Positions 6,680 to 46,079 of a DNA stretch of 64,000 nt are shown piece after piece. Numbering within the stretch: position 1 is the first letter of the stretch; each line of letters begins with the position of its first letter. A model generated the notes under the pieces. That model saw only the letters and a list, made by a program, of their open reading frames with translations. It ran no database searches and was not told where the DNA came from. The translations under genes were made by a program, and so were the position numbers. This stretch comes from Candidatus Latescibacterota bacterium (GTDB lineage Bacteria > Latescibacterota > UBA2968 > UBA8231), in the NCBI GenBank assembly GCA_965203355.1, contig OZ241889.1, forward strand, positions 128,001 through 192,000. Direction: 5' to 3'.

Positions 6680-6725
6680 GAATCCTCCTTGTAAACCTTC
6701 CTTATTATTGCCAATTCACTGATGT

Positions 6726-8564: not shown

Positions 8565-8571
8565 GTTGACC

Positions 8572-9738: not shown

Positions 9739-9757
9739 GGTGTATTCTCAAGCTCCT

Positions 9758-21361: not shown

Positions 21362-21787
21362 TCAAAAGCGCTTGCGATAATGGTCACGAGGCAACCGAGA
21401 AGAGGCCCGACGCTGCCAGTAACTTTCCGCGTCGGGAGCGATTTTGCGGTCGAGCGGATCGCGGCCCAAAAGGCGCATACCAAGCCCAGTCAGCGTAAAA
21501 AGCGTGTAGAAAACCAGCCCCAAGAGCAGGTGGATATTGACAAAAGCCACCATCCTCGCCAGCCACATGTAGGGAAAGTAGATCGGCTTCAACGCTACGG
21601 GCAGTATCAACCCAGTCCCGAACAACGCGAGCGAGGCCGCGTGTACAAACGGGGCGACGCCGACCGCCTCCACGTACCACAGATAGCCGCCGAGCAAGGC
21701 CAGCAACGCCGCTAGCACGATTCCGAATCGGCGCAAATCGCCGCGTGTGGGCACCGCGACCCCCCAGTAGCTCTTGGCCTCAGTCAA
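21362..21787 (-). CDS. SxtJ-family membrane protein
   Basis: Probable TTG start overlapping the carbamoyltransferase stop. DLRRFG, PxxLKPIY..WM, GMRLLGRDPL..SYW..R..F C-terminus. Confidence 0.75.
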   Translation of the reverse strand: MTEAKSYWGVAVPTRGDLRRFGIVLAALLALLGGYLWYVEAVGVAPFVHAASLALFGTGLILPVALKPIYFPYMWLARMVAFVNIHLLLGLVFYTLFTLTGLGMRLLGRDPLDRKIAPDAESYWQRRASSRLPRDHYRKRF

Positions 21788-28428: not shown

Positions 28429-29451
28429 TTAGAACCCGAACTGAAAGGTAAAGGTATTGAGCGCGTCGAAATACTCCACCGTAGTGTAGGCGTAATCAAC
28501 GCGCAAATCTTTGATCGTCCCGGCATCCAGATTCAGACCAAAGCCGAAGCTAGTGCCGTATAGGTAGTCGTCAGCCGAGTTGGGCGCGTAGTCGAAGCCT
28601 GCGCGCAGAGCGAAGAGTTTGCTCAACACATATTCAGCACCCAACCGGTACTGGTCGTAGGCGAAGTTGTTGTGCCGGAAGACCGAGGACAGATTGAGCG
28701 CATCCATATAGGAATAGCTCAGGCCGAGTTCAAACGTTGAAGGCAGGTCGGCAGAGCTAGCCTGCACATTGTAATCCGAGGGTCCGCGGCGCAACCCGTC
28801 AAGCTGGCCGCGGCGCAACAGACCAGAGCCGCCAAACTGCATCCGCGTGCCGATGTGCTTGAGTGCCACCCCCAAGTCCAAGCCGGCAATCCCGCCCAGA
28901 TTGGCGTATTGCAGACCGGCGCTAAACGAGACCGCGGTGGCCTCGACGCGCTGGACGCGGTTGGCGATGTAATGGCTGGTAAACCCGACCGAGATGCGAT
29001 CGGTCAGTTCCCTCGCAAAGGTCAGGCCCAGCGTGAAGAAGGTCGGCGAAAAGGTCGCGCCCGTGCCGTCTGGATTGGCCTCGGTCGTCACCGGGATTTG
29101 GCCGAAATCCAGCGCCTTGATGTTGAGAGCCAGCGCACCGAGACCCTCAAAGTTGGCACCAGTAGCCAGATAGTTGATGCGAGTATCCGCCAGATAGGAC
29201 ATCGTCGAGAACATGATGCCCGCGTTGGATTCGGACTTGGACAAACCTGCCGGGTTCCAGTGCAGCGCCTCCAAACCGGAACTGGTGGCGATCGAGGCAC
29301 CCCCCAAAGCCATGTCGCGCGCACCAACCGGAATCAGCAATTCCGGGGCCGCGGCCGTACCGGCGCGATCATAGCCATCGGCAAAGGCGTAAGCCGAGGC
29401 GAAAACTAGCCCCAGCAGGATCGTCGAGATGCGAAAGCTGTGTCTAAGCAT
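28429..29451 (-). CDS. PorV/PorQ-like (UPF0164) outer-membrane barrel
   Basis: Start at MLRHS. RAGTAAAPELLIPVGARDMALGGA..ALHWNPAGL, GAEY..FALRAG, VDYAY, C-terminal Phe. Confidence 0.85.
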   Translation of the reverse strand: MLRHSFRISTILLGLVFASAYAFADGYDRAGTAAAPELLIPVGARDMALGGASIATSSGLEALHWNPAGLSKSESNAGIMFSTMSYLADTRINYLATGANFEGLGALALNIKALDFGQIPVTTEANPDGTGATFSPTFFTLGLTFARELTDRISVGFTSHYIANRVQRVEATAVSFSAGLQYANLGGIAGLDLGVALKHIGTRMQFGGSGLLRRGQLDGLRRGPSDYNVQASSADLPSTFELGLSYSYMDALNLSSVFRHNNFAYDQYRLGAEYVLSKLFALRAGFDYAPNSADDYLYGTSFGFGLNLDAGTIKDLRVDYAYTTVEYFDALNTFTFQFGF

Positions 29452-29490
29452 GGAATGGCCTCCTATTTCTCCCTTTGATATCCGGTGCAT

Positions 29491-32400: not shown

Positions 32401-33006
32401 CTCGTCCGCGTCTGGATTGTACTCGCCGTCCCCGTCGTTGTCGTAATAGGGCGCTCCTTTCTGATAGGGCCATTCGCGCCAATCCCGCTCGTACTGAGCG
32501 CGGAGGGCCGCCACGTCGCTGTCGGTAACGGCACTCAGCCCAATCCCCAAGCTCTCAGCGGCGTCGAGCCGCAAGTCCGCCGTCCGGTAATCGCGGCGAA
32601 TGCGGTAGATGCGGACGCTTGGATCGGCCGGATCTTCGGCCTCGCCTTTGGCGACGATGCGACCGGGCACGGTGCCTATCTCGTAGGTCTGGCCGCCGAC
32701 GCGCAACTCCTGCGGGTCGCCATCCTTGACGATGCCGCCCCAGATCAGGCCATCCCGATAGATGACCTGAGCGGTTGAGCGCGGAAAGGTCACCCCGGAA
32801 CTGGAAGTGAGTGGGTTGTACCCAGAGGATCCGTTTCGCTCAAACCACATGGCCATGTTGTTGATGTTGAGCAAGGCGCGCTGGCCGAAATCGTTTTCCT
32901 GCGCGGTCTTGGCAGCGCGATGCGCGTTCGGTCCGCGGCTTTGGACCGGACCGGCTAGGCCGAGCAAAAGCCCAGTGGTCGCCAAATAGGTGACAAATTT
33001 TTTCAT
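29491..33006 (-). CDS. Large acidic secreted protein with T9SS type-A-like C-terminal domain
   Basis: Signal peptide, DxDxDG-type calcium loops, FN3-like DFEGYNLY..YYFAVTAY, C-terminal VFPNPY..IRIFDMSG.LVRTI..WDL.N..VASGMYI..KLAII. Confidence 0.8.
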   Translation of the reverse strand: MKKFVTYLATTGLLLGLAGPVQSRGPNAHRAAKTAQENDFGQRALLNINNMAMWFERNGSSGYNPLTSSSGVTFPRSTAQVIYRDGLIWGGIVKDGDPQELRVGGQTYEIGTVPGRIVAKGEAEDPADPSVRIYRIRRDYRTADLRLDAAESLGIGLSAVTDSDVAALRAQYERDWREWPYQKGAPYYDNDGDGEYNPDADEPGVAGADQVAWFVINDLDVGAAQSLYGSKPVGLEVQVLLWGYARTDALGDVIFKKFTVVYKGTSATPDTARIEDMYFAQWADPDLGSYGDDFAGADVDLSLGYVYNSINDDANYVPFGLAPPAVGYDFLQGPVVPVFQKDENGDPLLDEEGNVVLDESSEAIFNFGRRPGYRNLPMTSFVYFAAGSAIDDPELGEYIGTEEWYNLLRGFQPQPDIGNPVPYTNPLTGDETFFTLDGDPTTAQGWNDGIPLPAGDRRIVLNTGPFEMALGDTQEVVVALLGGISTDRLRSVSKLKFNDQFVQDAYNSFFEVPKPPAQPNVRVIELDQTIILDWGWDDASVQATEGVGSPGFDFEGYNLYQLPSAEATLAQGVKVATFDIENGVTTILGIDLDEASGVVLDVPLQIGTDFGIKRNIKITQDHVRSGPLVNGQQYYFAVTAYNRATDEGAATTALESAPQNLICVPQEPPPGTRYLSEPGDAISARHTAGASDGTVSVSVVDPTSTTGHDYAVEYAADADGNTVWNLVDKTSGQTLLADQKDQAGTAFYVGSAGIEVSVSGPPAGMKSWAGPAMPFEAWKASSEAADLTGDGQINAADFAQAVDHASDTRWFTWAGGSGDWGAEGFEGAMTGDPNHQWFAPSTVTPDRLRTVELRFTDVIEEDGEDQYKPVDVNNENVSWAYRYLRGAGGEPPAPGDLTTTQNPWDFGKYIINTEGPGVYVYQERNPIALSAWDIESDPPRRLEVAFLENNQPGGLVNGVYGPPWYTVASNIAGSGPREWLFIFDLDYTDPNQGENSDILLNNGLITEGEEHLPFMWIIFAERRNEEDFPSDGDSFLLVANHVNTPADRFSFTVSGSESSDAYLAEDLEKINVFPNPYLGVNTAETSRYNHFVTFSHLPPKANIRIFDMSGTLVRTIEKDDPSQFTRWDLQNHNALPVASGMYIAHIELPDHGKSRVLKLAIIQEQQFLENF

Positions 33007-33021
33007 AACGTTTTCCTCCCT

Positions 33022-36000
33022 TTACAGGCCCAGTTTGATCCCAAAGCGGATTTGACGCGGCGAGCCAAAAATGTCACCGCCTTCGTTGAACCAATAGTGC
33101 TGTCGGTTGGCCAAGTTGATGGCCTCGTATAACTGCTGGTACGTCAAACCGGCACTGGCCGCAACAATTTGGCTGCTCAGATCGGGATTGGTGAGGAAGC
33201 CGTCGTCTTCGGCGCTGCCAGTGCGGCTGTACACGTTAATCACGTTTTTGCGGTTGAACAGGTTGTAGACATAGAGGTAGATCTGGGCGTCGGCACCAAA
33301 CAGACCGAAGCCTTTATCTATTTTCATGTCAACTTCAAAAGTGTAAGGCGTCGAAGAGGCATTGATGCTTTCGGCTGGCTTGCGCGAGCGCGGGTCGTCG
33401 TTGGCGAGGATGCCGCCGTCTTCCGGGCCGCGCTGGCCGATGGACCCGCCCGACAAGGTGAAATTGTGGCCGCTGCTAAAACTCAACAGCAGGTTGGCCC
33501 CCAAGTTTTCGAGGATCGGCCCGCCGTCGTTGTCGGCAAAGCGATAGTCGACAAAGATGTTGCCGCGATGCGTCTCGTTAAAGTCCAACGGCGAGATGAT
33601 GGTGGGCAGGTTGGTGTTGTTCTCGACCCCAGAAACGGCCGAATTGATCGATGAGCCGGTGCCGCGGGCATCCGACAGGGTGTAGTTAAGCTCGGTGCGC
33701 AACCGATTGATGCGGCGCAGCTTGAAGACGAACTCCAAACCCTTGGTCGCGGCAAAGTCGCCGTTTTGCAGGAAATTGTACGCGCTGGCGTTTTGGGCCG
33801 CGGTCGAAATGTTTTGGCGCTGTAGCTGTAACTGGCCCTTCACGTCGCGGTAGAAGCCGGTGATGTCGAAGGAAGCCACGTCGGTAAATTGGCGCTCAAA
33901 GCCGATTTCGTACTGGGTGGTGCGGATCGGCTCAATGTCAAAGGCCGTGGGGATGCGGATAAAGTTCTGACCGCCCAACTCCAGGGCCAACCGCGCCCCG
34001 CCAGTAAACATCGAACGCATGGCCGGCATCTGCACAAAGCGGCCGTACTGCACGTGAAAGACCGTTAAGTCCGACACCGGGAACGAAAACCCGAGCCGCG
34101 GGCTAAGTTCGCTGAACGTGCGCGTCTTTTCCATTGAGCCGAGATCAATGGTGAAGAGCGAATCGCTGCGCACGGGTGCCGCGGGCTCCCTGAAGCGAAA
34201 ACTATCGACGTCGAAGTAATCCCAGCGCAGCCCGGCGTTCACGATGAGATCATTGTATTCGATCTTGTCCTGAATAAAGGCCGACGCTAGCACTGGATTG
34301 CGCGGAGCCTCCAGCCCGCGGCCTGCATCCTTGCGCCCAAAGGCGTCGAAGCCGAAGAAATCGGCCCGGCTGGTGTTGCGGATCATGGTGGCGAAATCAT
34401 CCAGACTGCCATCCCCATCGTCCAACGTCTCGGCCTTGTCAATCAGCGCGTCCATCAAGTCGGCGGCGGCAATCTCCCCGGCGTAGTACCGATCGTACAC
34501 TGAGTCCAGCTCGGGATACGTGTTTCTAATGGCGTTGCGGATCGAGTTCAGGGCGATGCCAAAGCGCCGCGAGGTCCAGCGCTGGACGTCAAAGCCCAGC
34601 TTGTACTCATGCACATCGGTCTGGCGGGTCAGGCTACCGCCAACGCCGTAGTAGCGATCCTCCTCCTCGGCGTAAAGGCTGGACCGAGACGTGCCGTCTA
34701 CCGGCCATACCGGCGTACCCGGGCGGGCAAAGGGAAAGCCGTTCAAGTCGTAGTTGCGCGGTGCCACGCCTTGGGCGGAATACGGCGTGAAATCGGGGGA
34801 GGCTTGAGCCACGGCCAAGCTGTCGTTATAGAGCATGAAGTTGTCTCTAAAAACCGGGTCGAAGGTATCGCGACTTTGGTTGTAAAGACTGACGTTCACC
34901 TCGTAGAACATTTTGGGGCTGAGCAAGTGGGTGCCCTTGATATTGAGCAAGCCCGACACCCGCTCCCTTTCGGGCAGCCGCGCCGTATTGAGCATGTTGC
35001 GAACGGGCGTGGGATTGAGTTCCTGATCCTCGATGGAATAGAGGCCGGTGAGGCGCAGTTGGAAGGGCAGCATATCGAATAGCAGAGTGCCGTTGAAATT
35101 GAGCTGCTCGCGGCCAGTATGGTCGATATTGCCCGGCCGCAGATTCAGATCCACGGTATCGGGTATGGCATTGCCGTCGGCGTCCTCGCGCCAGTGGATT
35201 CGGCCGCCGCGGTCGCCGGAATCGACCAAGTCGTCAAACTGGAAGCCCTCCCAATAGGAAGGCTGGAAATCCCGCACCCAGCGCTGCCCGGCGAGAAACG
35301 CCCGCACGTTCTTGAGGCCCACCACCGGACCGCTCAAGGTGACGACCTGGGTAGAATAACCATAGGAATAGGTGCCAAAGCGCTGTTCATACGGGGAAGT
35401 GAAATTATCCGTCTCGCTCAGCACCCCGATCTGCCACGCTGGCGTGCCCGTGCGCAACTCTTGGAGAATGATGCCAGCATTGGCCCCGCCGTACTCGGCG
35501 TTGAAGCCGCCGGCTTGTAGCTGAACTTCCTCGAGCGCCTCGTCAATTAGGCCCACAGCACTGCTGCCGGTGATTGGATTGCGGACGCTAGCCCCATCGA
35601 CGTAGTAGCCAATCTCGTCGGAGCGCGAGCCGCGCACGTGCAACGCGCCTTCGTCCAAAACCACGCCCGGCTGTATGTCGATGACGCCGTTGACCCCTCT
35701 AAACGGCAGGATCTCTAGGTCCTCAGCCCCGACGATGCGCACCGCATTGGTGGCGGTTTTGTCGATAATTGGCCGCTCGGCGCGAATTACCACCTCCTCG
35801 ACTTGGATATCCGAAGAAGTCAGGTCGATGTTGAGATTCGTGGTTAGGTTGGCGGAAACCCGCACATCCTCAATGGTATAATCCGCGTAGCCGATATACG
35901 TGGCCTTGAGGGTGTAGGCACCCGCTGGCACGTTGAGAATAAAAAAGCGGCCCTTTTCGTCCGCCGTCGTCCCTAGCTTGGTATCTACCACCGCGATATT

Positions 36001-36147
36001 GGCATGGGGTAGCCCATCGCCGGTGGCGGCATCCTGGACGACACCGGCGATCTTACCGCCCGTACTGGCCTCGGCCGGAGCCAAGCTCAGCGCGAGCAGG
36101 ACGCCCAGTGCGGTCAGAGTGCGAAAAACGCCTGTGAACTTGGTCAT
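33022..36147 (-). CDS. TonB-dependent receptor with N-terminal carboxypeptidase-regulatory-like domain
   Basis: Start at MTKFT (36147, AAGGAGG RBS). GKIAGVVQDAATG..GRFFILNVPAGAY, plug LHVRGSRSDEIGYYVDG..GGFNAEYG, barrel NAGLRWD, SPRLG, NLFNRKN, PRQIRFG. Confidence 0.92.
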   Translation of the reverse strand: MTKFTGVFRTLTALGVLLALSLAPAEASTGGKIAGVVQDAATGDGLPHANIAVVDTKLGTTADEKGRFFILNVPAGAYTLKATYIGYADYTIEDVRVSANLTTNLNIDLTSSDIQVEEVVIRAERPIIDKTATNAVRIVGAEDLEILPFRGVNGVIDIQPGVVLDEGALHVRGSRSDEIGYYVDGASVRNPITGSSAVGLIDEALEEVQLQAGGFNAEYGGANAGIILQELRTGTPAWQIGVLSETDNFTSPYEQRFGTYSYGYSTQVVTLSGPVVGLKNVRAFLAGQRWVRDFQPSYWEGFQFDDLVDSGDRGGRIHWREDADGNAIPDTVDLNLRPGNIDHTGREQLNFNGTLLFDMLPFQLRLTGLYSIEDQELNPTPVRNMLNTARLPERERVSGLLNIKGTHLLSPKMFYEVNVSLYNQSRDTFDPVFRDNFMLYNDSLAVAQASPDFTPYSAQGVAPRNYDLNGFPFARPGTPVWPVDGTSRSSLYAEEEDRYYGVGGSLTRQTDVHEYKLGFDVQRWTSRRFGIALNSIRNAIRNTYPELDSVYDRYYAGEIAAADLMDALIDKAETLDDGDGSLDDFATMIRNTSRADFFGFDAFGRKDAGRGLEAPRNPVLASAFIQDKIEYNDLIVNAGLRWDYFDVDSFRFREPAAPVRSDSLFTIDLGSMEKTRTFSELSPRLGFSFPVSDLTVFHVQYGRFVQMPAMRSMFTGGARLALELGGQNFIRIPTAFDIEPIRTTQYEIGFERQFTDVASFDITGFYRDVKGQLQLQRQNISTAAQNASAYNFLQNGDFAATKGLEFVFKLRRINRLRTELNYTLSDARGTGSSINSAVSGVENNTNLPTIISPLDFNETHRGNIFVDYRFADNDGGPILENLGANLLLSFSSGHNFTLSGGSIGQRGPEDGGILANDDPRSRKPAESINASSTPYTFEVDMKIDKGFGLFGADAQIYLYVYNLFNRKNVINVYSRTGSAEDDGFLTNPDLSSQIVAASAGLTYQQLYEAINLANRQHYWFNEGGDIFGSPRQIRFGIKLGL

Positions 36148-36185
36148 ATATCCCTCCTTTGGTAGGACACTCAATAAAGACTCTT

Positions 36186-36899
36186 TCACATCAAATGCAA
36201 CCAGTCTTCCAAGAGAAAAGTCACGCGCCCGATCAACAGCGAAACTCTCGCCATAATGGTGTAACCAAACGACGCCCCAAACGAGACCATCAAAAACCAT
36301 ATCCCCACCTTGGAGACATGGCCGGCCGCGCCAGTGTGCTCGACGGAAAAGAAAAAATAAACCAACACCCCTATTACCCCTACTAGGACGATCAGCAAAT
36401 TAAGCCCCTCCCAGCTCCAAGTCAGTGGTTGTAATGTAGGCTCAATTTGGGCTAAAATAAAAGAAGAAACATAGCGGGGAATCGTCAGGCCGGCCCCCAG
36501 CCCCACAAAAAATGCAAAAGCATAGCGGCTAAGCCAACCAAAGCGCAGCGAAAAGCGCGTCAACATCAACAGCCCGAGTATCGTCGGGGCCAACAACCAC
36601 CAGTTGGGCGTCTCCCCTTCCCCCAGATCGGTCCATTCGGCGATGAGTTCGCCGTAGATCGTCGGATACCAATTCTGGCCGAATATGTAGGCCGCGGCCA
36701 CGCCGACGAAAACGTGTTCGGCAAACTTGAAAAGCGGGTTGTCCTTGTAGAGGAAGCTATAGAGTGCCAAGGTCATGCCTGCCGCGACAATAACGCCCAA
36801 ACCCGTCCAATCCGCCGCCAAGATCCCACTCGCCACCAAGCCGATATTGACCGCGGCAAACAGCAGGAGCAAACCCAAAAAGACATACGTATCGCGCAT
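36186..36899 (-). CDS. Hypothetical polytopic membrane protein (about 7 TM)
   Basis: Very hydrophobic, SFLYKDNPLFKFAEHVFVG motif, 3 nt from the upstream gene. Confidence 0.8.
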   Translation of the reverse strand: MRDTYVFLGLLLLFAAVNIGLVASGILAADWTGLGVIVAAGMTLALYSFLYKDNPLFKFAEHVFVGVAAAYIFGQNWYPTIYGELIAEWTDLGEGETPNWWLLAPTILGLLMLTRFSLRFGWLSRYAFAFFVGLGAGLTIPRYVSSFILAQIEPTLQPLTWSWEGLNLLIVLVGVIGVLVYFFFSVEHTGAAGHVSKVGIWFLMVSFGASFGYTIMARVSLLIGRVTFLLEDWLHLM

Positions 36900-36902
36900 G
36901 GC

Positions 36903-37733
36903 TTAACTCTCCTGCTGCGCTCGGCCCCGCCGAGCAGCGAAATACGCGATATTGCCAAAAATCACGAAGGCGATGATGATCAAATGGGTCGCCGACTGGG
37001 CACTCATGCCCTTGCTGGCACTGCCGCGAAGCCCAATCAAGGTTTCGTATTCGGCGGCACCGGCTAGGCCACCGAGTAGGCCGCGGAGTTGTCCCGAGTC
37101 GAGAAAGGGGTAGAGATCGGGCGCCATCACGGCGGTGCAGCCGGCCGCAAAGGGAAAGCCGTATTTCTCCTGCCCGTAGGGGATCCACCAAAACTCAATC
37201 GAATCCCCGGCGGCTAAATCAAAGACGAGGGCAAAATCGCGTAGCGAGCGCAAACCCCGCGTCAATTCCAAATCGCCGACACTTGCGCCCCAATTGTCCT
37301 GCGGGAAGGTGCCGTGGAAGTCCTGCCCCATGTTGAGGATGACGCTGAACCCCCCGACCTTGTAGCCCATGAAGGCGTAATCCACCCCGTACTCCAAATC
37401 GAATTCGGCCGCCAGTTCCTCCAGCACCTGTTGGGCCAGCCCCGCGGCATCGGGCCACAGGCAGATGGCGATCACCTTGAGGTCGCGGCGAAAGGCGTGG
37501 CGCAAAACCGAACGCGCCATGGGCTGCATCTCAGGATATGTGCTAGCGCCGTAGGAGAAGGAAACCAGCACAATGTCCCCCGCGTCGAGCTTTTCGACTT
37601 GGTCGTATGCGGCTTTTACTTCGCCCGTCGGCGTAATCGGCAGATAAATCCCGGCCAACAACGGCCCGGCTACGCCCACAAAAACTAGGGCGAAAATGAT
37701 GCGGCGGTCGATAGCGAGTAGCTTGTGCATCAC
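36903..37733 (-). CDS. Hypothetical membrane protein: alpha/beta domain between two TM helices (DUF6754-like paralogue)
   Basis: N-terminal TM, about 220 aa alpha/beta domain with LLGGLAGAAEYE, C-terminal TM. Start overlaps the upstream stop. Confidence 0.8.
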   Translation of the reverse strand: MMHKLLAIDRRIIFALVFVGVAGPLLAGIYLPITPTGEVKAAYDQVEKLDAGDIVLVSFSYGASTYPEMQPMARSVLRHAFRRDLKVIAICLWPDAAGLAQQVLEELAAEFDLEYGVDYAFMGYKVGGFSVILNMGQDFHGTFPQDNWGASVGDLELTRGLRSLRDFALVFDLAAGDSIEFWWIPYGQEKYGFPFAAGCTAVMAPDLYPFLDSGQLRGLLGGLAGAAEYETLIGLRGSASKGMSAQSATHLIIIAFVIFGNIAYFAARRGRAQQES

Positions 37734-38389
37734 TCGGAGCCTCCGCCCAAATACGAGCGTTCAATCCCAAAGATGATACGCAGCGAGGTCGCAATGGCCC
37801 CTAGAGACACCCCGAGCAGGACGCCGCGTTTAGCCGCCAAGTTGGGCACGTTCAGCAGCCAATCGCTTACCAGCGGAAAAAACTCGGAGATCTCGCGGCC
37901 AATGGGTACGCGGCCCAGCATGACGATCACGGCCGCGACCAACAACAGCGCGGCCTCGGGCGTACGGGCGCGAAAGGTCCGGTACGCCGCCGAAGCGATA
38001 AAGAAGGCCAAAATCGAGAACATAGTACTCGAACAAGGCCGATGGACGTACAGGAAGAGCCAATTGTAGCCCCCGGCTTTGGCTTGGGCGGCAAACGGGC
38101 CATGTCCATCGTTGTAGATAACGAAGACCATCATCACCACAAAACTGGCGATGGCAACGAAGCTGTAGCCCCAACCGATGGCCTGCTGCCGGATGCGCTG
38201 CCAGTGCAAGTTAAGCAGGCTGTACAGCCCGAGCAGGTAGGAAAACGCAAAAATAATCCGCACCCATTTTCCCCCGACCTCTTGCTCAAAGCCTTGGGCA
38301 TAGCCGTGTGGTATGTAGTAAATGGCAATGCCCAGCAAGCCAAAGACTAAGGCGATGGCCAGCGGTAAGGTCCGACTAAGAAACAGCAT
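37730..38389 (-). CDS. Hypothetical polytopic membrane protein (5-6 TM)
   Basis: Hydrophobic, with MFSILAFFIASAAYRTFRAR and AAKRGVLLGVSLGAIATSLRIIFGIERSYL. AGGAGG RBS. Confidence 0.8.
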   Translation of the reverse strand: MLFLSRTLPLAIALVFGLLGIAIYYIPHGYAQGFEQEVGGKWVRIIFAFSYLLGLYSLLNLHWQRIRQQAIGWGYSFVAIASFVVMMVFVIYNDGHGPFAAQAKAGGYNWLFLYVHRPCSSTMFSILAFFIASAAYRTFRARTPEAALLLVAAVIVMLGRVPIGREISEFFPLVSDWLLNVPNLAAKRGVLLGVSLGAIATSLRIIFGIERSYLGGGSE

Positions 38390-38398
38390 GGCCCCTCC

Positions 38399-39646
38399 TC
38401 AATAAGGAGTAAAGAAGTGAGTCAGGTGAGGCAACCGCAGCCCAACAGCCTCTAAAGTCGCCAACACAGTACCCAACACCAAAGCGACCAAAATCAGAGC
38501 CTTACCAGCGTCCTGGCCTTTGAGGCTGCCCAACATGCGCGGCTCGCCCGACAGATAAGCACTGGCTGCGTAGAGCTCCTCGCCGAGCAGGGTATAATCG
38601 CAGGTAGTGATAAAGAACGGCAACTGGGTAAAGGAATCGGTACCAGCGATCTGAATCGCCCCGGTCGTCGAACCCGTCTCGGCCAGCAGCAGCGACTCAG
38701 CATAGAAATATCCCATCATAATGTGAGCCGCCGGGCGGTCGCGGACCATGATGCCCTCGACTGCTGCCGCATAGCTAAACTGCTCGGTGCCGGCGATGAA
38801 AACATGATCGGGATTGAAGGCGTCAGGCCGCCCCGCCTCCACATACGAGGCTTTGACCGTCTCCTGACTTACCGACATAACCACCGGATCCGGGGCCACC
38901 ACCCGCAGCGCGGTGTCGTATTCGGCCGTGCGCCGGGCGACCCGCCCCAAAATATTGACCGCGGCAATGGTCGATATGGAGTCCATGAAGCGCAAGCCGT
39001 GGATGAAAAGCACCGGCTTGCCCATCTCGGTCGCCCGCCCCAGTGCCTCGTCGAGTGCCTCTAGCCCGGCGATGCGGCGGATCTTGAGTTCGCGCCGCCG
39101 CGCAATACCAATATAGCCCATGATGAGCCCTGAAAACACGACGCACAACACCAGATTGTTGACTTTGGCGCGGTTAAAAAAATTGCCTTTGGACTCGGCA
39201 TTGACGATCACTTTGCCGCGGACCGCGCCCCCAGCCGACCGCACATCAATGTGAAAGTAATACGTCTTGCCGTCTTCTAATGGCGTTTTGCCGCCCGCGT
39301 CAGCGAATTCCTCGACGTTGACATAGTGGTAATTCCCCAGCTCGGCCCCGTGCCCAAAGAGCGCCGGTGCCTCGGACATCAAGTTCCCCGTGGGCGCAAC
39401 TTCAGCCACGACGCGAAAAGGTCCGCTGGGCGAATCGGCGATGGCGACCTGATACATCGCATTGTCGCTGATCCGGGGATCGCGCGACCAAGTTAGCGTA
39501 ATGCTGCCCCCGTCGTCGTTGGGCGTGTCGAAGGCTTGTATCTCGATCGGCGGCATGGAGTGCGCCAGCCCTTGTGCCCCGTTCTCTGCCGCGCTCGCCA
39601 ACGGCCAAGCCAAGACGAATGCAGATAGCCAGTTTTTTGCTCTCAT
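38399..39646 (-). CDS. FN3-like plus DUF6754-like membrane protein
   Basis: Start at MRAKNW (39646). Signal peptide, DTPNDDGGSITLTW..YYF FN3-like domain, TM, IRRIAGLEALDEALGRATEMGKP..QLPFF..DYTLLGEELYAASAYL, C-terminal TM. Family name recalled, not searched. Confidence 0.75.
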   Translation of the reverse strand: MRAKNWLSAFVLAWPLASAAENGAQGLAHSMPPIEIQAFDTPNDDGGSITLTWSRDPRISDNAMYQVAIADSPSGPFRVVAEVAPTGNLMSEAPALFGHGAELGNYHYVNVEEFADAGGKTPLEDGKTYYFHIDVRSAGGAVRGKVIVNAESKGNFFNRAKVNNLVLCVVFSGLIMGYIGIARRRELKIRRIAGLEALDEALGRATEMGKPVLFIHGLRFMDSISTIAAVNILGRVARRTAEYDTALRVVAPDPVVMSVSQETVKASYVEAGRPDAFNPDHVFIAGTEQFSYAAAVEGIMVRDRPAAHIMMGYFYAESLLLAETGSTTGAIQIAGTDSFTQLPFFITTCDYTLLGEELYAASAYLSGEPRMLGSLKGQDAGKALILVALVLGTVLATLEAVGLRLPHLTHFFTPY

Positions 39647-39650
39647 GCCT

Positions 39651-40766
39651 TTATTCCTCAATCAGTTCCACATTTGCCCGCGGCACTACCGCCTGTTCTC
39701 CATCTTCAAACTCTACGGCCAATACCCGCACCCGCGCCCCAGACTCCACCGTACACAGCTCGGTCGGCAAGTCGCAGACGCGCCCAATCCGCCCAAAATA
39801 GGGCATCCGAATTACCCGCAACAAATCGCCCACCTGCAATCCTTTCGCGCCCGGTCGCACCTCTTCTGCCTCTTGGTCAGCGGCCGTGGGGACGATAATC
39901 TCCGGCCGCAACACGCCAGCGCGGATTTGAGTCGCACCGGCCATAGACGCATCCATGCCAGCGCAGGCCTGCAGAATATCAAATGTCTTGCGCGCCATGG
40001 CGACGCGGCCAAAGCCCTCGGTCGCTACTACCGTCAGGCCGATTTGCTCCGTCCCGGTGATAGCCACACCCAAATCGCGGCCAAGCAGGTCGCGCAAGTC
40101 GCTGTCGCGCAAACCGCCGCCGATCAACCCCACGGCACCTGCCTGCCGGGCCTGTTCCACAGTCTCCGCGCTAATCAGACTGCCTACCACGACAATTTTG
40201 CCTGCAACTTCCGGGCCCAGCGACTCGGCTGCGGTGTCAGGCGCCTCAACCGCCAAGTGCAGCGCACCCCAGCACTCCCCGCCCACGCCGAAAATGCCCT
40301 GGATGTAAGCACCTCGCGCTGCGACGCGCACACCTTCCTCGGCAAAAACTTCCTCGACAACCCCATCGACGTAAGCCAGCACTTCGACCGGCCTAGGAGC
40401 TTGCCGCAATATCACCTGACCCGTAACCGGCGAAATGCTCTCGACGGTGCCGCTGACCGGGGATTCAATCGTGGTCTTGAACCAGCGAATAAACGGCTTG
40501 GTCTCGGCGAGAGGCTCGCCAGCTTCGACCCGGTCGCCTTCCTTTTTGAGCATATAGCTAGCTAGATCTTGCGGCGAGGTGCCTAGGCGGTTGACCAAGT
40601 TGAGCGTCGCTACCTCGCCCGGCAATTCGGTGCGGGCCACGACTTGGTCGCGCCGCACCACTTGGTCTCGCTCAACGACCACTTCGCCTTTGAGGGGCAA
40701 ACGCCGCTCTTTGTGGATGATGGCGCGTTGCGTCACGCGCAGTCCAGGGGTATAAGCATGGGCCAT
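39651..40766 (-). CDS. Hypothetical soluble protein with barrel-sandwich-hybrid, swivel-like and KOW-like domains
   Basis: LKKEGDRVEAGEPLA..SPVSGTV (biotinyl/RnfC-like hybrid), GKIVVVGS..ARQAGAVGLIGGG (swivelling beta/beta/alpha-like), LQVGDLLRVIRMPYFGRIGRV (KOW). Confidence 0.75.
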   Translation of the reverse strand: MAHAYTPGLRVTQRAIIHKERRLPLKGEVVVERDQVVRRDQVVARTELPGEVATLNLVNRLGTSPQDLASYMLKKEGDRVEAGEPLAETKPFIRWFKTTIESPVSGTVESISPVTGQVILRQAPRPVEVLAYVDGVVEEVFAEEGVRVAARGAYIQGIFGVGGECWGALHLAVEAPDTAAESLGPEVAGKIVVVGSLISAETVEQARQAGAVGLIGGGLRDSDLRDLLGRDLGVAITGTEQIGLTVVATEGFGRVAMARKTFDILQACAGMDASMAGATQIRAGVLRPEIIVPTAADQEAEEVRPGAKGLQVGDLLRVIRMPYFGRIGRVCDLPTELCTVESGARVRVLAVEFEDGEQAVVPRANVELIEE

Positions 40767-40769
40767 GAG

Positions 40770-42551
40770 CTACTCGTATAGGTTTAGCGCCTGCTGCCAG
40801 TCGCTTATCTGACGCCGGCGGTCTTGATCTGACGCCATCTGGATGGGCCGCCCGCGCCCATCCAACACTAGCCCGACTACGCCACCGCGCACTCGTGCGT
40901 TTAGAGCTTGCCCCGGGCCAGCCCCCACATCCCACCGCCGCGCCGGCTGGAGCGAGACTTCGACCACCTCGCCATCGGCCAAAGGCATCCGCTGTAACTG
41001 GCCGATCGGTAACTGGCCGGTTTGACGCCCGCTGGGCAGGTCTATTTCGTATTGGAGGCAGACCTCGCCGGCCTTGCCCTCGCCGACAGGAGCCACACAG
41101 GTGCCCAAGTAGATCAGGCAATCGCGCTCGAAAACCTCGGTGGCAGCGCGCTTGTCCACAGTCGAGAGGACTCCCAAGTGAGGCATCATAAAGATACTAT
41201 CGACCGCCAAGCGGGTGACGCCTTCGGGCTGGAAGGCATCTATGAGCATGGCGCAACTTTGCTCGCGGCGGGGCGCGTGTGAGAGCACTCCGCCGCTGCC
41301 GACTAGCAGGTCCAGCCCCATCATCTCAACTAAACTCTCGCCGGTGGCCCCCTGCTCAAAAACATCGGCCAGCGTGCGCTTGCTCTGCACTCCCTTCAAC
41401 CCCACCGCCAACGCCCGATGCTGATCAAAGGCCAAGCGCAGTGCTTCGCGGGCAATGGCTTGCTCAACTTGTAGTTCCTGCATGAGTTGTGGGATGGTCG
41501 TCGGGCGAATCATCTTGTTTTTGATCCGGTCGCGGAGGTCGGCCTCCTCAATGTCAAAAGGAACCCAGCGCATGATTTGGCCGAGGCCGGCCTCGGCCAA
41601 CACGTTGGAGACGCTATAGGACATGCCGAGATTAGCACTGACCGTGCGGTTGAACACGCCGTCGAAAACGCTGAATACATCGGTCGTCGCCCCACCGATA
41701 TCCACGCCGACGACGTCGATCCCCTGCTGGCGGGCAATAGTCTGCATGATCTCGCCCACCGCCCCGGGCGTCGGCATAATCGGCGCACTGGCCCAGCCCA
41801 TCAGCTTGCTGTAGCCAGGAGCCTGCGCCATGACGTGCTCGAGGAAGAGGTCGTGAATGACGTGCCGCGCCGGGTCCAGATTTTCCTCTTCGAGCACGGG
41901 GCGGATATTCTCGGTAACAGTCAGGGCCATCTTCCCTCCCAGTGCCTTTCCGACCTCCTCGCGTGCGTCCTCATTGCCGGCAAAAATGACCGGCAACTTA
42001 AAGCCGGCGCCAAAGCGGGGCTTGGGATCGGCCGCGCTGATGAATTCGGCCAGTTCGACCACGTGACTGACGGTGCCGCCATCCGTGCCGCCCGACAGCA
42101 ATACCATATCGGGGCGCAACTGGCGAATCCGCTCTATTTTTTCGTGCGGCAAGCGCCTATCGTTGGCGGCGAGCGCGTCCATGACGATCGCCCCGGCACC
42201 CAAGGCGCAACGCTGGGCACTCTCGCCGGTCATCGCCAGGACCACACCGGCCACTACCATCTGCAATCCACCGCCCGCACTGCTCGTCGAGACGTAGCTA
42301 TCGACCCCGACATCGCCGGCGGCCGGCGTGATAATCCGCTCGCCATCGAGGATCTGCCGCCCGGAAAGCTCCTCGACCTCTTGAATGGCGTTGAGAACTC
42401 CCCGAGTGACGTCTTCAAAGGGGGCCTCAACCGTGGTTGGAGCCTCGCCGCGAAAGGTCTGGCGATACCCTTCTTCCTTCTTTTCGATCAGGATCGCCTT
42501 GGTCGTCGTACTGCCGCAGTCCGTGGCGATAACTACGTTGAGTTCATCCAT
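40770..42551 (-). CDS. GlmL/MutL (glutamate mutase L)-family actin-like ATPase
   Basis: Start at MDELN (42551). ASKHA motifs TDCGSTTTK (phosphate 1), VDIGGATTDVFS (phosphate 2), VGSGGVLSH (adenosine). SSAGGGL, LLSGGTDGG and MPTPGAV are typical of GlmL. Confidence 0.85.
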   Translation of the reverse strand: MDELNVVIATDCGSTTTKAILIEKKEEGYRQTFRGEAPTTVEAPFEDVTRGVLNAIQEVEELSGRQILDGERIITPAAGDVGVDSYVSTSSAGGGLQMVVAGVVLAMTGESAQRCALGAGAIVMDALAANDRRLPHEKIERIRQLRPDMVLLSGGTDGGTVSHVVELAEFISAADPKPRFGAGFKLPVIFAGNEDAREEVGKALGGKMALTVTENIRPVLEEENLDPARHVIHDLFLEHVMAQAPGYSKLMGWASAPIMPTPGAVGEIMQTIARQQGIDVVGVDIGGATTDVFSVFDGVFNRTVSANLGMSYSVSNVLAEAGLGQIMRWVPFDIEEADLRDRIKNKMIRPTTIPQLMQELQVEQAIAREALRLAFDQHRALAVGLKGVQSKRTLADVFEQGATGESLVEMMGLDLLVGSGGVLSHAPRREQSCAMLIDAFQPEGVTRLAVDSIFMMPHLGVLSTVDKRAATEVFERDCLIYLGTCVAPVGEGKAGEVCLQYEIDLPSGRQTGQLPIGQLQRMPLADGEVVEVSLQPARRWDVGAGPGQALNARVRGGVVGLVLDGRGRPIQMASDQDRRRQISDWQQALNLYE

Positions 42552-42879
42552 GTTTGTGGCTTTCGCGCTGGGCAATGGCCTCCGCAAGTAGGTCTATAGA
42601 TTGGCGTCGCTCCAACATGCGCGTAAATCGCTCGTACTCGTCACGCGAAAAAACCAGCGTGGCAAACGGGGCCAAAAAGGTCAGGGCTTGGCTACCCAAA
42701 AAGTTGAGGGGACGACAAGCCTCCAACGCCATAGACGCAGCCGCTCCCATGCGGCGACGCACTATAAACTCGGCTAACCGCTCGGCCAGCGCACGCTCTT
42801 CCTCAGACCAACTCGCCTCCGGGTCTTCGAGGGCAAAAGCGCGTCGCCACCGCTCTTTCAAGCTATTGACTTGGAACAT
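42544..42879 (-). CDS. Small helical hypothetical protein
   Basis: Start at MFQVN. LEACRPLNFLGSQAL.FLAPF motif. Overlaps both neighbours. Confidence 0.7.
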   Translation of the reverse strand: MFQVNSLKERWRRAFALEDPEASWSEEERALAERLAEFIVRRRMGAAASMALEACRPLNFLGSQALTFLAPFATLVFSRDEYERFTRMLERRQSIDLLAEAIAQRESHKHG

Positions 42880-43279
42880 GGCACCGAACGAAATGCACAA
42901 CTTCTTCGCGGTTCTGCTCAAAGCGCAAAAAAACGCCGCGAAAGGAATCCAGCCGACTCGGGCGAGCAGATGGACGCAAAAAAATGCCGTCCCAATGTTC
43001 ATCTACTCGACGGAATTCCGCCCAAGAGCGGCGCTGCTTGAAACCGAGATGTTCGCTGTTGATCCCCTCGCTGTCGAGCACATAGCGCGTGGGAAAGAAG
43101 TAGCGCGACAGCGAGGCGGTCAATGCCCCGAGCGAAAATGCCCCGTACAACCAATGCTCAAACCCAAAGGCAGCGGCCGCTGAGGAAGCGATGATGAGCG
43201 CGACCAGTAGCACTGATTTGGCCGGCCGCTCCCGGCGCAAGGGGTGAATTGCCCAGCGAAGCGGGGCTGCGAAGGACAC
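42863..43279 (-). CDS. Hypothetical 2-TM protein with PH-like C-terminal domain
   Basis: Probable GTG start 10 nt after the SBP stop (AAGGA RBS). W..HP, two TMs, YFFPTRYVL..W..FRR..GIFL.P..LDSFRGVFLRF. Confidence 0.65.
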   Translation of the reverse strand: MSFAAPLRWAIHPLRRERPAKSVLLVALIIASSAAAAFGFEHWLYGAFSLGALTASLSRYFFPTRYVLDSEGINSEHLGFKQRRSWAEFRRVDEHWDGIFLRPSARPSRLDSFRGVFLRFEQNREEVVHFVRCHVPSQ

Positions 43280-43289
43280 CGACGTGTCC

Positions 43290-45125
43290 TTAGTACATCT
43301 GCATTTTCTGCGCGACCCACCAATCTTGCAAGCGGACGCCAGGGGGATACCAAGTGACGCCACTGAAGCGGCGGCTATAAGCTTGGGCCGTGCGCGGCTT
43401 CCACAAAAAGGTATAGGGCTGTTCCTCGTGCAGGATTTCTTGAAAGCGCTGGTAGAGTGCGATGCGCCTTTCCATGTCGAACTCGCGGCGGTAGGTCTCC
43501 AAGATGTCGTCAACCTCGGCGTTGATGAAGCTCACCGCGTTGGAACCGTTCGCTACGGCCTGGGAGGAATGCCAGATCTGGTAACCGTCGGGCGCGAACT
43601 TCACATTGCCGGTCCAAGCCAGCACCATGGCGTCAAAATCCTTGCCGCGGACTTTTTGCAAAAAAATCGACCAATCTAACTCGCGCACTTGGCAGTCAAT
43701 GCCGATGTCCTGCAACTCGTATTGCAAAGTCAGGGCGATGTCCTTGCGGATCTGGTTGCCCGAATTGATCAAAATCTCAAAGCGAAATGGCACCCGATTT
43801 CCGCTGATGGCCTTATCGAGAATGCCGTCCTCGTCGGCGTCCTCCCAGCCAGCTTCCGCCAGCAGGTCGAGGGCGCGGTCGGGATCATACGCGTACGGCG
43901 CGAGATCGTGGTTGTATTCGGGGCGGAACTTGTGAATCGGCCCCTCCACCGCTTCGGCTAGGCCGAACATGATGTTTTCGACCATGCCCTCGCGGTCGGT
44001 TAGATAGGTCATGGCTTGGCGCACCCGCTTGTCGCCAAAAATTGGATGATTGTTGTTCCAGCCGATGTACAAATATCCACCAGCATAGCTAACGCCTTTG
44101 AGGAAGCGGCGGTTGAAGTCTTCCGACCAACTCTTTTCCTTAAATTCCAATGGGCGCAGAGCGTGGTAGTCGAGATTGCCATTGGTCAACTCGATGAATG
44201 CCGCGTCAGTATTGTTGATGATGTTAAAGACGATCTTATCGACAAAGCCAGGCGGCAGTAGCCCTTCCACATCTCGCCCCCAGTAGTTTTCGTTCCGCGT
44301 CAGCACGATTTTTTGTTGAGTGACCAAGTCGCGCTCTGGATCTTCTATTATATACGGCCCCGAGCCTAGGACCTTGCGGTTGAAATTTTGATTGAATTGT
44401 TCGGCAAAGCGCTCGACTCGCTCTTTGTGTGGCCCCTCCGCCCAAGAACCATCCACCAAACTCTTGACCTCGACCGGGTCCAGCAAACCCTCTGGATCGT
44501 AAAAGTGCTTAGGCAAGATATCGAAGCCGCCCAAGATCAGGTCATTGCGGAAATAGCGCTTGTCGCACAGAAAGCTGACCTTGTTCGCGCCTACCTGCTG
44601 TACCGCTTCGACAGCGGCGTAGTAGTTGCGCAGATGCGGCGCTAGCACTTGGGGATTGTGAATGACCTTCATGCTGAAGACGACGTCCGCCGCCGTCAGC
44701 CGCTTGCCGTCTGAGAAGTAAACCCCGTCGCGCAGTTCAAACGTATAGGTGAGTTTGTCCGCAGAAATCTCCGGGTAGCCCTTGGCGATTAGCCCTCGCA
44801 ACGCATAGGGCGGATCCGAGTCGGCTTCGAGCAGGCTTTCAAGTACGTAATTCAAGACCGTGCTGGCACCGGCATCATTAGCGGTGTACGGATTGAGTTT
44901 TTCGGGGTCGGACAGCATGTGGCGCACCATCCAATCACCGTAGGTCGGCTCTTCTCCGCTCTCGTAGCGCAGCGACGCCTTCTCAATGCCGTCGAGCACG
45001 ACGATATCCTCGGTACTCATGAGAATTTCCTGCACTACTTCCCATGATTCCTCCTCAGCGGCGACATGACCGCCGATGCAGACACCCAACCAAGCAGCCA
45101 CTATGGACATTCTAACTTTCGGCAT
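43290..45125 (-). CDS. Family-5 peptide ABC transporter substrate-binding protein
   Basis: DPEKLNPY, TYTFELRDGVYFSDG..TAADVVFS, GSGPY, DKRVRQAM, LLAEAGW, FQEILHEEQPY. Confidence 0.92.
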   Translation of the reverse strand: MPKVRMSIVAAWLGVCIGGHVAAEEESWEVVQEILMSTEDIVVLDGIEKASLRYESGEEPTYGDWMVRHMLSDPEKLNPYTANDAGASTVLNYVLESLLEADSDPPYALRGLIAKGYPEISADKLTYTFELRDGVYFSDGKRLTAADVVFSMKVIHNPQVLAPHLRNYYAAVEAVQQVGANKVSFLCDKRYFRNDLILGGFDILPKHFYDPEGLLDPVEVKSLVDGSWAEGPHKERVERFAEQFNQNFNRKVLGSGPYIIEDPERDLVTQQKIVLTRNENYWGRDVEGLLPPGFVDKIVFNIINNTDAAFIELTNGNLDYHALRPLEFKEKSWSEDFNRRFLKGVSYAGGYLYIGWNNNHPIFGDKRVRQAMTYLTDREGMVENIMFGLAEAVEGPIHKFRPEYNHDLAPYAYDPDRALDLLAEAGWEDADEDGILDKAISGNRVPFRFEILINSGNQIRKDIALTLQYELQDIGIDCQVRELDWSIFLQKVRGKDFDAMVLAWTGNVKFAPDGYQIWHSSQAVANGSNAVSFINAEVDDILETYRREFDMERRIALYQRFQEILHEEQPYTFLWKPRTAQAYSRRFSGVTWYPPGVRLQDWWVAQKMQMY

Positions 45126-45158
45126 ACTCTCTCCTTTTAATTAGCTAAACCAAATCCA

Positions 45159-46079
45159 TCAAACGAAGGTCAACCACCCGTGCGGGTCCTCAGCTCCGAC
45201 GCGGACCACGGCGAAAAAGGCATCTTGGATCTGTGCGGTGATCGGCCCGCACTTCCCACAGCCGATTTGCACTTGGTCTATAGCGCGAATCGGCGTGATT
45301 TCGGCGGCCGTGCCAGTGAAGAAAACCTCGTCGGCAATATAGAGAAACTCGCGTGGAATACCGCGCTGCTCAACCCGCATCCCCAAGTCGCGTATCAAGG
45401 TTATGGCGGTGTGGCGGGTGATGCCCGGCAGAATGGCAAAACACGACTCAGGCGTGTAGATCGAGCCGTTCTTGATGACAAAGATATTCTCGCCGCTGCC
45501 CTCGCTCACCAACCCATCTGTTCCCAAAACAATACCCTCGTCGTAGCCGTTGGCATTGGCTTCAATCCGCACGAGCTGCGAGTTGAGGTAGTTGCCGCCG
45601 GCCTTGGCCAAGGCGGGAAACGTATTCGGGGCCATGCGGTTCCACGACGAGGTGCAGACCGAAACGCCGTTTTTCAGCGCCGCCTCTCCGAGGTACTCTC
45701 CCCACTCCCACACGGCGATCACCACGTCAACCGGGCACCCCATCGGATCAACTCCCAAGTTCTTATAGCCGCGGAAGACAACCGGGCGAATATAGCAGGC
45801 CGCGAGCTGATTGACGCGGATCGTCTCGAGAATGGCCTCGGTGATTTCCTCCCGCGTATAGGGAATGTCCATGCGGTAGATTTTGGCGGAATCAAATAAC
45901 CTGTTGACGTGCTCGTCGAGGCGGAATACGGCCGAGCCTTTCGCGGTCTCGTAACAGCGAATGCCTTCAAAGACGCTCGAGCCGTAGTGTACTACGTGGG
46001 AAAGCACGTGGATCTTGGCGTCGTCCCAATCGACCCATTGGCCATTGAACCAGATTTTATCGCATTTGGGCAGGGGCAT
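45159..46079 (-). CDS. ilvE: Branched-chain amino acid aminotransferase
   Basis: [54 protein letters not shown]. Confidence 0.97.

Follow-up and report, generated by a model that had tools for sequence, protein, structure and literature searches.

We analyzed a 64-kb stretch of DNA from contig OZ241889.1 of a Candidatus Latescibacterota bacterium (the window), focusing on a head-to-tail series of eight open reading frames (ORFs), g1 to g8, which occupies positions 36186 to 43279 of the minus strand in the ORF read-out (Table 1). The genes make up two modules: a soluble module of g3 and g4, with g2 and sometimes g1, and a membrane module of g5 to g8. The gene system is real and widely conserved; its parts have known folds, and we found no described counterpart of the whole. 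A literature search, with supplements lying outside its scope, returned nothing on DUF6754, PF13941 or the system, and only unrelated work for 'glutamate mutase L'/TIGR01319; a search of the same scope for actin-fold ATPases, membrane complexes and Planctomycetota returned nothing relevant.

Table 1. Coordinates of the genes and other features (window positions, unless a locus, L, is named; aa, amino acids).
Feature	Location	Strand	Description
g1	42863-43279	minus	138 aa; two hydrophobic helices and a C-terminal soluble part
g2	42544-43002	minus	152 aa; small helical protein
g3	40770-42587 (alternative start, ATG at 42551)	minus	605 aa; putative acetate and sugar kinase/Hsc70/actin (ASKHA, actin-fold) ATPase, Pfam MutL family
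g4	39651-40766	minus	371 aa; barrel-sandwich hybrid, swivelling beta/beta/alpha and KOW domains
g5	38399-39661	minus	420 aa; DUF6754 protein
g6	37730-38389	minus	219 aa; polytopic, about six hydrophobic helices
g7	36903-37733	minus	276 aa; N-terminal transmembrane helix, soluble alpha/beta domain, C-terminal transmembrane helix
g8	36186-36899	minus	237 aa; polytopic, about five or six helices
SBP_bac_5 binding protein	43290-45125		upstream of g1
Class IV aminotransferase	45159-46079		upstream flank
CarboxypepD_reg and Plug receptor-like protein	33022-36150		after g8
1171-aa protein	29491-33006		downstream flank; no Pfam match
PorV-like protein	28429-29490		downstream flank
SBP_5/Opp stretches	43290-45125, 24944-27271; L056 4401-7612, 13511-15514; L163 13109-16749; L181 15604-18549
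LplA/LipB-type genes	L044 5424-6254; L056 922-1797; L131 13436-14161; L105 7821-8129
LplA/LipB-type genes (approximate)	L170 about 5214-6080; L169 about 4617-5393
Memo-like gene	L140 13194-14471		immediately after g8
Tll0287-like gene	L115 3753-4505		between g4 and g5
Divergent g3-g4 fusion of genome G189	L162 (G189:C35) 8086-10959	minus	958 aa
Carbamoyltransferase	21780-23603		contains a D.H..G string
Orn/DAP (ornithine/diaminopimelate) decarboxylase	23696-24967		contains a D.H..G string
Low-G+C stretch	6001-8000
641-aa ORF	6726-8651

The eight genes are tightly packed, as the initial annotation of this DNA had described: coordinates and strand agree, and neighboring genes overlap or are 3-9 nt apart. 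By their coordinates, g1/g2 and g2/g3 overlap, g3 and g4 are separated by 3 nt, g4 and g5 overlap by 11 nt, g5 and g6 are 9 nt apart, g6 and g7 overlap by 4 nt, and g7 and g8 are 3 nt apart. The true start of g2 is probably the ATG at 42879, which gives a protein of about 111 aa. Neither g1 nor g2 had a Pfam or NCBIfam match above cut-off, g1 having only a weak, sub-cut-off match to TgpA_N.

We compared gene order in three sets of loci: the best 80 of 375 relatives in a genome collection, the 80 best metagenome loci out of 584 retrieved with a Brocadiia DUF6754 protein as anchor, and 22 stretches fetched from 14 genomes outside the phylum. The nearest relatives of the window are metagenome-assembled genomes labelled Latescibacterota by their depositors. 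All eight genes were present, on one strand and co-linear in 68 of the 80 genome-collection loci, and g5 to g8 were contiguous and in order in 79 of them; an insert separated g3 from g4 in 10. This arrangement of eight genes is far beyond what is expected by chance. Among the metagenome loci, 60 of 80 contained all four of g5 to g8, and 27 of 80 contained both g3 and g4, at 62-76% and 50-65% identity, respectively. All 27 membrane modules in the stretches from outside the phylum had the order g5-g6-g7-g8, and 11 of those 22 loci had g4, g3 and mostly g2 beside one membrane module. Wherever g5 to g8 could all be read, they adjoined one another and kept this order, and in Latescibacterota, metagenome and outside-phylum loci g6 always followed g5. 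The smaller genes of the soluble module differed in their distribution. g2 adjoined g3 in 17 metagenome loci and in 11 of the 22 outside-phylum loci. g1 is a variable accessory gene: it was present in Latescibacterota loci, was found at 29-34% identity in 5 of the 22 outside-phylum loci, occupied a different position in L177, and its profile had no match in most metagenome loci.

These comparisons correct the earlier picture of the cluster in two respects. One is the accessory nature of g1. The other is that the membrane part is a separable four-gene module, which also occurs with no ATPase pair nearby and can be present more than once in a genome. Metagenome loci L091, L114, L131, L138, L142 and L146 had two or three copies of the module in tandem, and arrays of two or three modules lay beside a single g3-g4 pair in L114, L146 and L172. 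The complete chromosome G246 has a full g1-g8 cluster, followed by two SBP_5 genes; about 1.1 Mb from it lies a second g5-g8 module.

The soluble and membrane modules also occurred together at the level of whole genomes. In the phylum of G001, a genome 94-95% identical to the window, 142 of 167 genomes contained DUF6754 (PF20539) and 141 of them gave a match to g3. Neither was detected in G013-G028, G034 and G098. The discordant genomes of this phylum that could be read from the lists were G007 and G129, with g3 only, and G030, G033 and G130, with DUF6754 only; the last three are small assemblies of 0.8-2.8 Mb. PF20539 was also found in 23 of 93 further genomes (G168-G260), with up to five matches in one (G186). 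We take these genomes to lie outside the phylum because the phylum search yielded only 167 genomes. Searches with g3 and g4 covered 80 of the 93 (G168-G247, with G248-G260 outside). The g3 clade, at an identity of at least 49%, was present in 17 of the 20 PF20539-positive genomes and in 0 of the 60 PF20539-negative genomes, and the g4 profile was matched in 19 of 20 and 0 of 60 (Fisher p = 1e-14 for g3 and 2e-17 for g4, values that overstate independence in that the genomes are kin). Across most of the outside-phylum genomes carrying it, the g3 clade was 61-68% identical. Six genomes had only MutL-family matches of 29-36% identity; five of these are probably canonical GlmL types, and the sixth, G237, is divergent and also has PF20539. 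Genomes had one soluble module versus one to five membrane modules. We conclude that the two modules are functionally linked and that the system spans several phylum-level lineages: Latescibacterota, Planctomycetota, and Marinimicrobia-like and WOR-3/TA06-like lineages.

g3 is a putative ATPase from a distinct, very conserved and divergent clade of the MutL/GlmL family. It matched Pfam MutL (PF13941, gathering score 27 bits) with 426.7 bits (E = 1.3e-127) over profile positions 1-450 of 450, and it also matched Hydantoinase_A. It scored below the cut-offs of three NCBIfam models: NF040745 (GlmL, methylaspartate mutase accessory, equivalog; 232.3 bits, cut-off 475), NF040744 (GlmL-related ornithine degradation protein Or-4; 211.4 bits, cut-off 600) and TIGR01319 (glmL_fam, subfamily; 158.8 bits, cut-off 204.05). 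A sequence search found no relative of g3 among solved structures. Residues D11, G13, S14, T15, T17 and K18, D284, G286, G287, A288, T289, T290 and D291, and G418, G420 and G421 were invariant in 27 aligned sequences. We take these to be the phosphate-1, phosphate-2 and adenosine motifs, and their invariance bears out the initial description of g3 as an ASKHA ATPase with these motifs intact. The identity between g3 and 25 orthologues taken from the fetched loci was 64-86% over about 600 residues. The match list flagged one TGA ('1 TGA') inside the g3 match of G003, G050, G052, G055, G057, G058, G060-G063 and others, probably where the match runs a few codons past an overlapping upstream stop.

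g3 shares its fold family with GlmL/MutL and Or-4, as seen in the full-length PF13941 match and in the nucleotide-binding motifs that it has in common with a canonical MutL paralogue. Unlike GlmL/MutL, it is only 31% identical to that paralogue, carries an extra C-terminal domain of about 110 aa that the paralogue lacks, has no adjoining B12 protein, and is found with g4 and the DUF6754 module, often fused to g4. MutL has been described as a chaperone (PMC4682846).

It is with the membrane module, not with B12 enzymes, that this ATPase clade is associated. The window was said to contain no cobalamin enzyme, and a tblastn search of it with a B12-binding protein returned only matches with E of at least 0.53 (the best being 0.53), Pfam having covered the window ORFs in part. 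The related statement that the 64 kb contain no DxHxxG motif is not literally true. There are two D.H..G strings, in the carbamoyltransferase and the Orn/DAP decarboxylase, which is the number expected by chance at this length. G001 has one MutL-family gene, that of the cluster, and both of its matches to the B12-binding domain (PF02310) are at least 236 kb from the cluster. G003 has a second, canonical MutL gene (499 aa, 507.8 bits) that directly adjoins a 153-aa B12-binding protein, and the clade copy of MutL in the same genome sits with the membrane genes. A survey of gene neighborhoods had been proposed, and in it the clade co-occurred with the membrane genes, both adjacent and genome-wide, without a neighboring B12 mutase. 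The part of the initial interpretation that coupled the clade to membrane genes independently of B12 mutases is supported, whereas the role of motor or transporter attached to it is a matter of interpretation, which we take up below.

The AlphaFold2 (AF2) model of g4, built from 17 sequences (predicted local distance difference test score, pLDDT, 83.6), has three domains, and their fold matches agree with the barrel-sandwich, swivel and KOW domains assigned initially. Residues 51-123 form a barrel-sandwich hybrid similar to those of NqrA (4u9o_A; Z = 8.1, root-mean-square deviation (rmsd) 2.1, 64 residues aligned) and RnfC (8ahx_C; Z = 7.4), residues 151-294 form a swivelling beta/beta/alpha domain similar to those of phosphotransferase system (PTS) Enzyme I (2wqd_A; Z = 9.4, rmsd 2.6, 105 aligned) and rifampin phosphotransferase (5hv1_A; Z = 8.8), and residues 307-371 form a KOW/SH3-like domain similar to that of NusG (1m1g_A; Z = 8.6), all with Z values that exceed the stated background of the comparison tool only modestly. 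Foldseek searches with the models of g4 and g5 gave domain-level or generic matches only, and a sequence search of solved structures gave nothing usable for g4. In Pfam, g4 matched Biotin_lipoyl marginally above the cut-off (26.4 bits, cut-off 22.1) and was below the cut-offs for RnfC_N (25.1 versus 25.6) and NQRA_N (20.4 versus 25).

Two carrier functions were considered for g4 and rejected. The Biotin_lipoyl match and the neighboring LplA/LipB-type ligase genes prompted the idea of a lipoyl or biotinyl carrier. It does not hold as a general feature, since both loop lysines vary: among 25 orthologues, four have T, S or R in place of K97 and five have R in place of K90. A phospho-histidine carrier of the type of the phosphoenolpyruvate-utilising mobile domain was rejected because no histidine is conserved; none is invariant within residues 151-294 of the 25 orthologues, and the window protein has R where most others have H.

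g3 and g4 form one functional unit, since many lineages encode them as a single fused polypeptide. There were 44 longer proteins matching g4, and 43 of these carry PF13941. Most are about 990-1005 aa long, and the overall range, mostly 989-1022 aa, corresponds to the sum of g3 and g4. The motifs of both halves were present in the two fusions that were checked (P0402 and P0407). Source labels of the fusions include Planctomycetota and Neomarinimicrobiota 'glutamate mutase L', names given by the depositors. One record (P0401, 707 aa), which could be a gene-calling artefact, joins g4 to g5. In G226 and G202, open frames of about 1000 aa that looked like g3-g4 fusions were out-of-frame artefacts of GC-rich DNA and were discarded. 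G189 has a divergent 958-aa fusion, with MutL at residues 16-486 and an NqrA_N/Biotin_lipoyl-like region at 662-787. This second MutL and barrel-sandwich fusion, with identities of about 41% to g3 and 32% to g4, is distant from any membrane module and adjoins a beta-helix protein and a MarR-like gene.

g5 is the only one of the four membrane proteins with a family match. It matched DUF6754 (PF20539, gathering score 27 bits) with 372.4 bits (E = 1.2e-111) over residues 158-405. The AF2 model of g5 (pLDDT 90.7, 63 sequences) has an N-terminal hydrophobic helix, an Fn3 domain (32-160) that matches Fn3 folds at Z of about 10.5, a long helix (164-189), a Rossmann-like alpha/beta domain (197-372) and a second long helix (374-405); each of the two long helices would be a transmembrane helix. 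Matches of the Rossmann-like domain, at Z near 10, were to PGK (2cun_B), LpxB (5w8x_A), Sir2 (3u31_A), MT0777 (1kjn_B), TrkA-N (3fwz_B) and KtrC (6i8v_A). Judging from the signal peptide, the distribution of charge and one OmpA-DUF6754 fusion, the Fn3 domain would be periplasmic and the Rossmann-like domain cytoplasmic; the replacement of Fn3 by an OmpA domain in one family member fits a periplasmic ectodomain. The soluble domain of g7 would also be periplasmic by the positive-inside rule. Many polar residues are invariant in the alignment of the DUF6754 domain; Pfam, a PDB sequence profile and fold comparison identified neither a cofactor-binding motif nor an enzyme family in it. The family is large, with 2248 cluster representatives at 50% identity and E of at most 0.001. 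The region ahead of the domain is highly variable, with protein lengths of 342 to 1341 aa. Among the N-terminal parts (of P0291, P0260 and others), one has an OmpA peptidoglycan-binding domain, one has HEAT repeats, and eight long ones have no Pfam domain.

The other membrane proteins had few recognisable relatives. g6, g7 and g8 had no Pfam or NCBIfam match, and a sequence/profile search of the PDB found no usable relative of g5, g6, g7 or g8. g7 had no named neighbor in the ESM Atlas. The ESM Atlas clusters nearest to g8 are unnamed, and the commonest phyla in them are Latescibacterota and Planctomycetota. As judged by profile-profile comparison, the four membrane proteins appear to have no detectable relation to one another (probabilities of 0.3 for g5-g7, 3.1 for g6-g8 and 1.0 for g5-g8); an apparent kinship of g5 and g8 in BLAST clustering was a single-linkage artefact. 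Pfam and NCBIfam searches of all eight proteins revealed no ATP-binding cassette (ABC) ATPase domain (PF00005), recognised permease family or ExbB/ExbD-like domain, and none of the eight matched the PADLOC anti-phage defence models at E of at most 0.01.

Our preferred reading, which is tentative and to which we give a probability of roughly 0.4, is that g3 and g4 form a shared ATP-driven motor that serves interchangeable membrane modules in transport or trans-envelope translocation. ATP hydrolysis by the g3-g4 pair would drive a conformational cycle in the membrane modules, and the pair would probably act through the only sizeable cytoplasmic domain, the Rossmann-like DUF6754 domain of g5. This could happen by grip and release of that domain, comparable to the cycle of glycerol and diol dehydratase reactivases, in which an ATPase with a swivel domain holds and lets go of a Rossmann-like subunit (PMC7674605). 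The output would be transport of a substrate or translocation across the envelope, as selected by the variable periplasmic parts, and the soluble module would be an energiser shared by interchangeable membrane modules. A bolder form of the proposal, which we consider doubtful, is that the system represents a new class of primary ATP-driven membrane translocase, with an ASKHA motor and a swivel partner, that is not of the ABC, P-type, rotary or AAA+ kind. One motor per cell would then plug into several four-subunit modules, and Fn3, OmpA or long ectodomains would set the substrate or envelope target.

The proposed motor can be compared with three kinds of known system. In energy-coupling factor (ECF) transporters with a common EcfAA'T, in ABC importers that share an ATPase, and in TonB-ExbBD, which serves many receptors, one energiser is shared. 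The system described here is similar in having one energising module per genome and several paralogous membrane modules, only one of which is encoded beside it. It differs in having an actin-fold ATPase and four apparently unrelated membrane subunits, with no ABC or ExbB/ExbD-like domain. In Na+-NQR and Rnf, a barrel-sandwich domain is found on a cytoplasmic subunit docked to membrane subunits, and residues 51-123 of g4 resemble the N-terminal barrel-sandwich hybrid domain of NqrA and RnfC. Unlike NqrA and RnfC, g4 scores below the corresponding Pfam cut-offs and differs in the rest of the protein, and g5 to g8 have no Rnf-Nqr family match. In the reactivases DdrAB and GdrAB, the alpha subunit has an ATPase domain and a swiveling domain, and ATP hydrolysis frees the beta subunit from the swiveling domain (PMC7674605). 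The g3-g4 pair likewise would combine an actin/Hsp70-like ATPase with a swivelling domain, and g5 would offer a Rossmann-like domain. The likeness of the g4 swivel comes from the fold matches to PTS Enzyme I and rifampin phosphotransferase, not to reactivase structures. In contrast to the reactivases, there is no B12 enzyme, the swivel is in a separate protein together with barrel-sandwich and KOW domains, and the presumed client is a membrane complex.

Several observations weigh against a motor of this kind. At least eight long metagenome loci have stand-alone membrane modules with no g3 or g4 within 8-10 kb upstream. The upstream neighbors of these modules are housekeeping genes (PurF, GlyA, enolase) or a Wza-like SLBB protein, and the closest named relatives of the loci are labelled WOR-3 or TA06. 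DUF6754 in the stand-alone modules is as conserved as in the linked ones, so the domain may work without g3-g4, and the membrane complex as a whole may function, or at least be retained, with no motor encoded close by. In one genome with PF20539 (G232) neither g3 nor g4 was found, and in another (G183) g4 was found and g3 was not; both are possibly incomplete assemblies. Searches of Pfam, NCBIfam and PDB sequence profiles placed neither g6 nor g8 in a transporter family, nothing indicates a substrate for the proposed transport, and the fold matches of the Rossmann-like domain of g5 are generic. Contact between the two modules is putative, as are the topologies of g5 and g7. The ratio of one soluble module to many membrane modules suits a chaperone or assembly factor as well as it suits a motor. 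A complex prediction for residues 190-375 of g5 with g4 gave no model answer (score 0.00, against a mark of 0.32) and bears neither way on binding.

If no transport step is driven, g3-g4 might be a maintenance chaperone or reactivase of a membrane enzyme or assembly complex formed by g5 to g8. DUF6754 would bind a nucleotide or cofactor, and g3-g4 would use ATP to repair, load or exchange the ligand, a role ascribed to MutL/GlmL in the case of glutamate mutase. The many invariant polar residues of DUF6754 would suit an active or ligand site, a single soluble module for several membrane modules would suit a shared chaperone, and orphan membrane modules exist. The ATPase-plus-swivel architecture would also match that of the B12 reactivases (PMC7674605). 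However, the searches of DUF6754 for a cofactor-binding motif or enzyme family were negative, the 61-68% identity of g3 across most of its outside-phylum carriers seems unusual for an accessory repair factor, and this explanation leaves the variable periplasmic ectodomains and the two polytopic subunits unaccounted for. We consider a chaperone unlikely. Still less probable, in our estimate, is an envelope scaffold or force-transmitting tether, in which a membrane-associated, possibly polymerising g3 would use g1, g2 and g4 as its anchor to membrane-spanning modules extending to peptidoglycan or the outer membrane, with a role in cell shape, surface organisation or motility instead of transport. 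Proteins with many interaction surfaces typically show identity as high as that of g3 among its orthologues (64-86% over about 600 residues), the Fn3-array ectodomains differ greatly in length (proteins of 342 to 1341 aa), one DUF6754 member carries the peptidoglycan-binding OmpA domain, and a Wza-like gene adjoins some modules. Yet the Hydantoinase_A match places g3 in the hydantoinase-like branch of the actin fold, in which we know of no filament former, and several paralogous modules per genome suit diversity of substrates better than a single scaffold.

A further possibility, that g3 is an ordinary GlmL-type accessory of a B12 mutase from another locus and adjoins the membrane genes without functional significance, is already close to refuted. 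g3 does match Pfam MutL strongly, depositors call the fused forms 'glutamate mutase L', and proteins with B12-binding domains do occur in genomes of this phylum. Against this, g3 is below all three NCBIfam cut-offs for GlmL types, the nearest PF02310 match in G001 is at least 236 kb away, the B12-linked place in G003 is taken by a separate canonical paralogue, and DUF6754 is tracked both by g3 (17/20 versus 0/60) and by g4 (19/20 versus 0/60). The remaining probability belongs to an explanation not yet thought of.

If the shared-motor proposal is true, a new kind of energy-coupling ATPase would join the short list of those that drive membrane processes, and a function would be assigned to the very large orphan family DUF6754 and to three further unnamed membrane families. 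These families are common among phyla that are poorly known and for the most part uncultured, sponge-associated bacteria among them. The analysis also sets a clade of proteins annotated as 'glutamate mutase L' apart from B12 metabolism, public records mislabelling these proteins. Because g3-g4 fusions exist in nature and the four-gene module is compact, the hypothesis lends itself to direct testing.

The genes flanking the cluster are listed in Table 1. In the window, OppB/OppC-type permeases lie further downstream of the PorV-like protein. The receptor-like gene and the gene for the 1171-aa protein keep their order alongside the cluster in the closest relatives and not in more distant ones. 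Opp-type ABC genes neighbor the cluster in some lineages only. In L056, SBP_5 and OppB-type genes are inserted between g3 and g4, and OppD/F follow g8. In G229, a substrate-binding protein 42% identical to that of the window lies upstream of g3, and an adjoining permease-like ORF clusters with the OppB of L056. The recurrent SBP_5/Opp neighbors could reflect a link to uptake of peptides or oligosaccharides, or could be due to chance, SBP_5 genes being numerous.

Other genes were found next to or within the cluster in subsets of loci. An LplA/LipB-family ligase gene is directly upstream of g1 in 20 Latescibacterota loci. A gene of this type also follows g8 in L105 and, directly, in L131 and L170, its start overlapping the stop of g8 in L131; in L169 it is two genes downstream of g8. 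Fifteen metagenome loci from at least two lineages, L140 among them, have a Memo-like gene (PF01875, 137 bits) as the next gene after g8. In L115 and L119, g4 and g5 are separated by a Tll0287-like gene (PF11845, E = 6.8e-26) that encodes a CxxCH motif.

Contigs of RNA library X20 (85-99% likeness) covered 29 of 30 bins of positions 35000-45200; DNA may be present in the library, so this coverage does not demonstrate transcription. Seven public sequencing runs from four studies contained at least half of the sampled words of 36186-43279; two of the runs are labelled sponge metagenome, and one is possibly the source sample. Elsewhere in the window, the G+C content of positions 6001-8000 is 0.40, compared to about 0.59 in the remainder, and this stretch, which the 641-aa ORF overlaps, may be foreign DNA.

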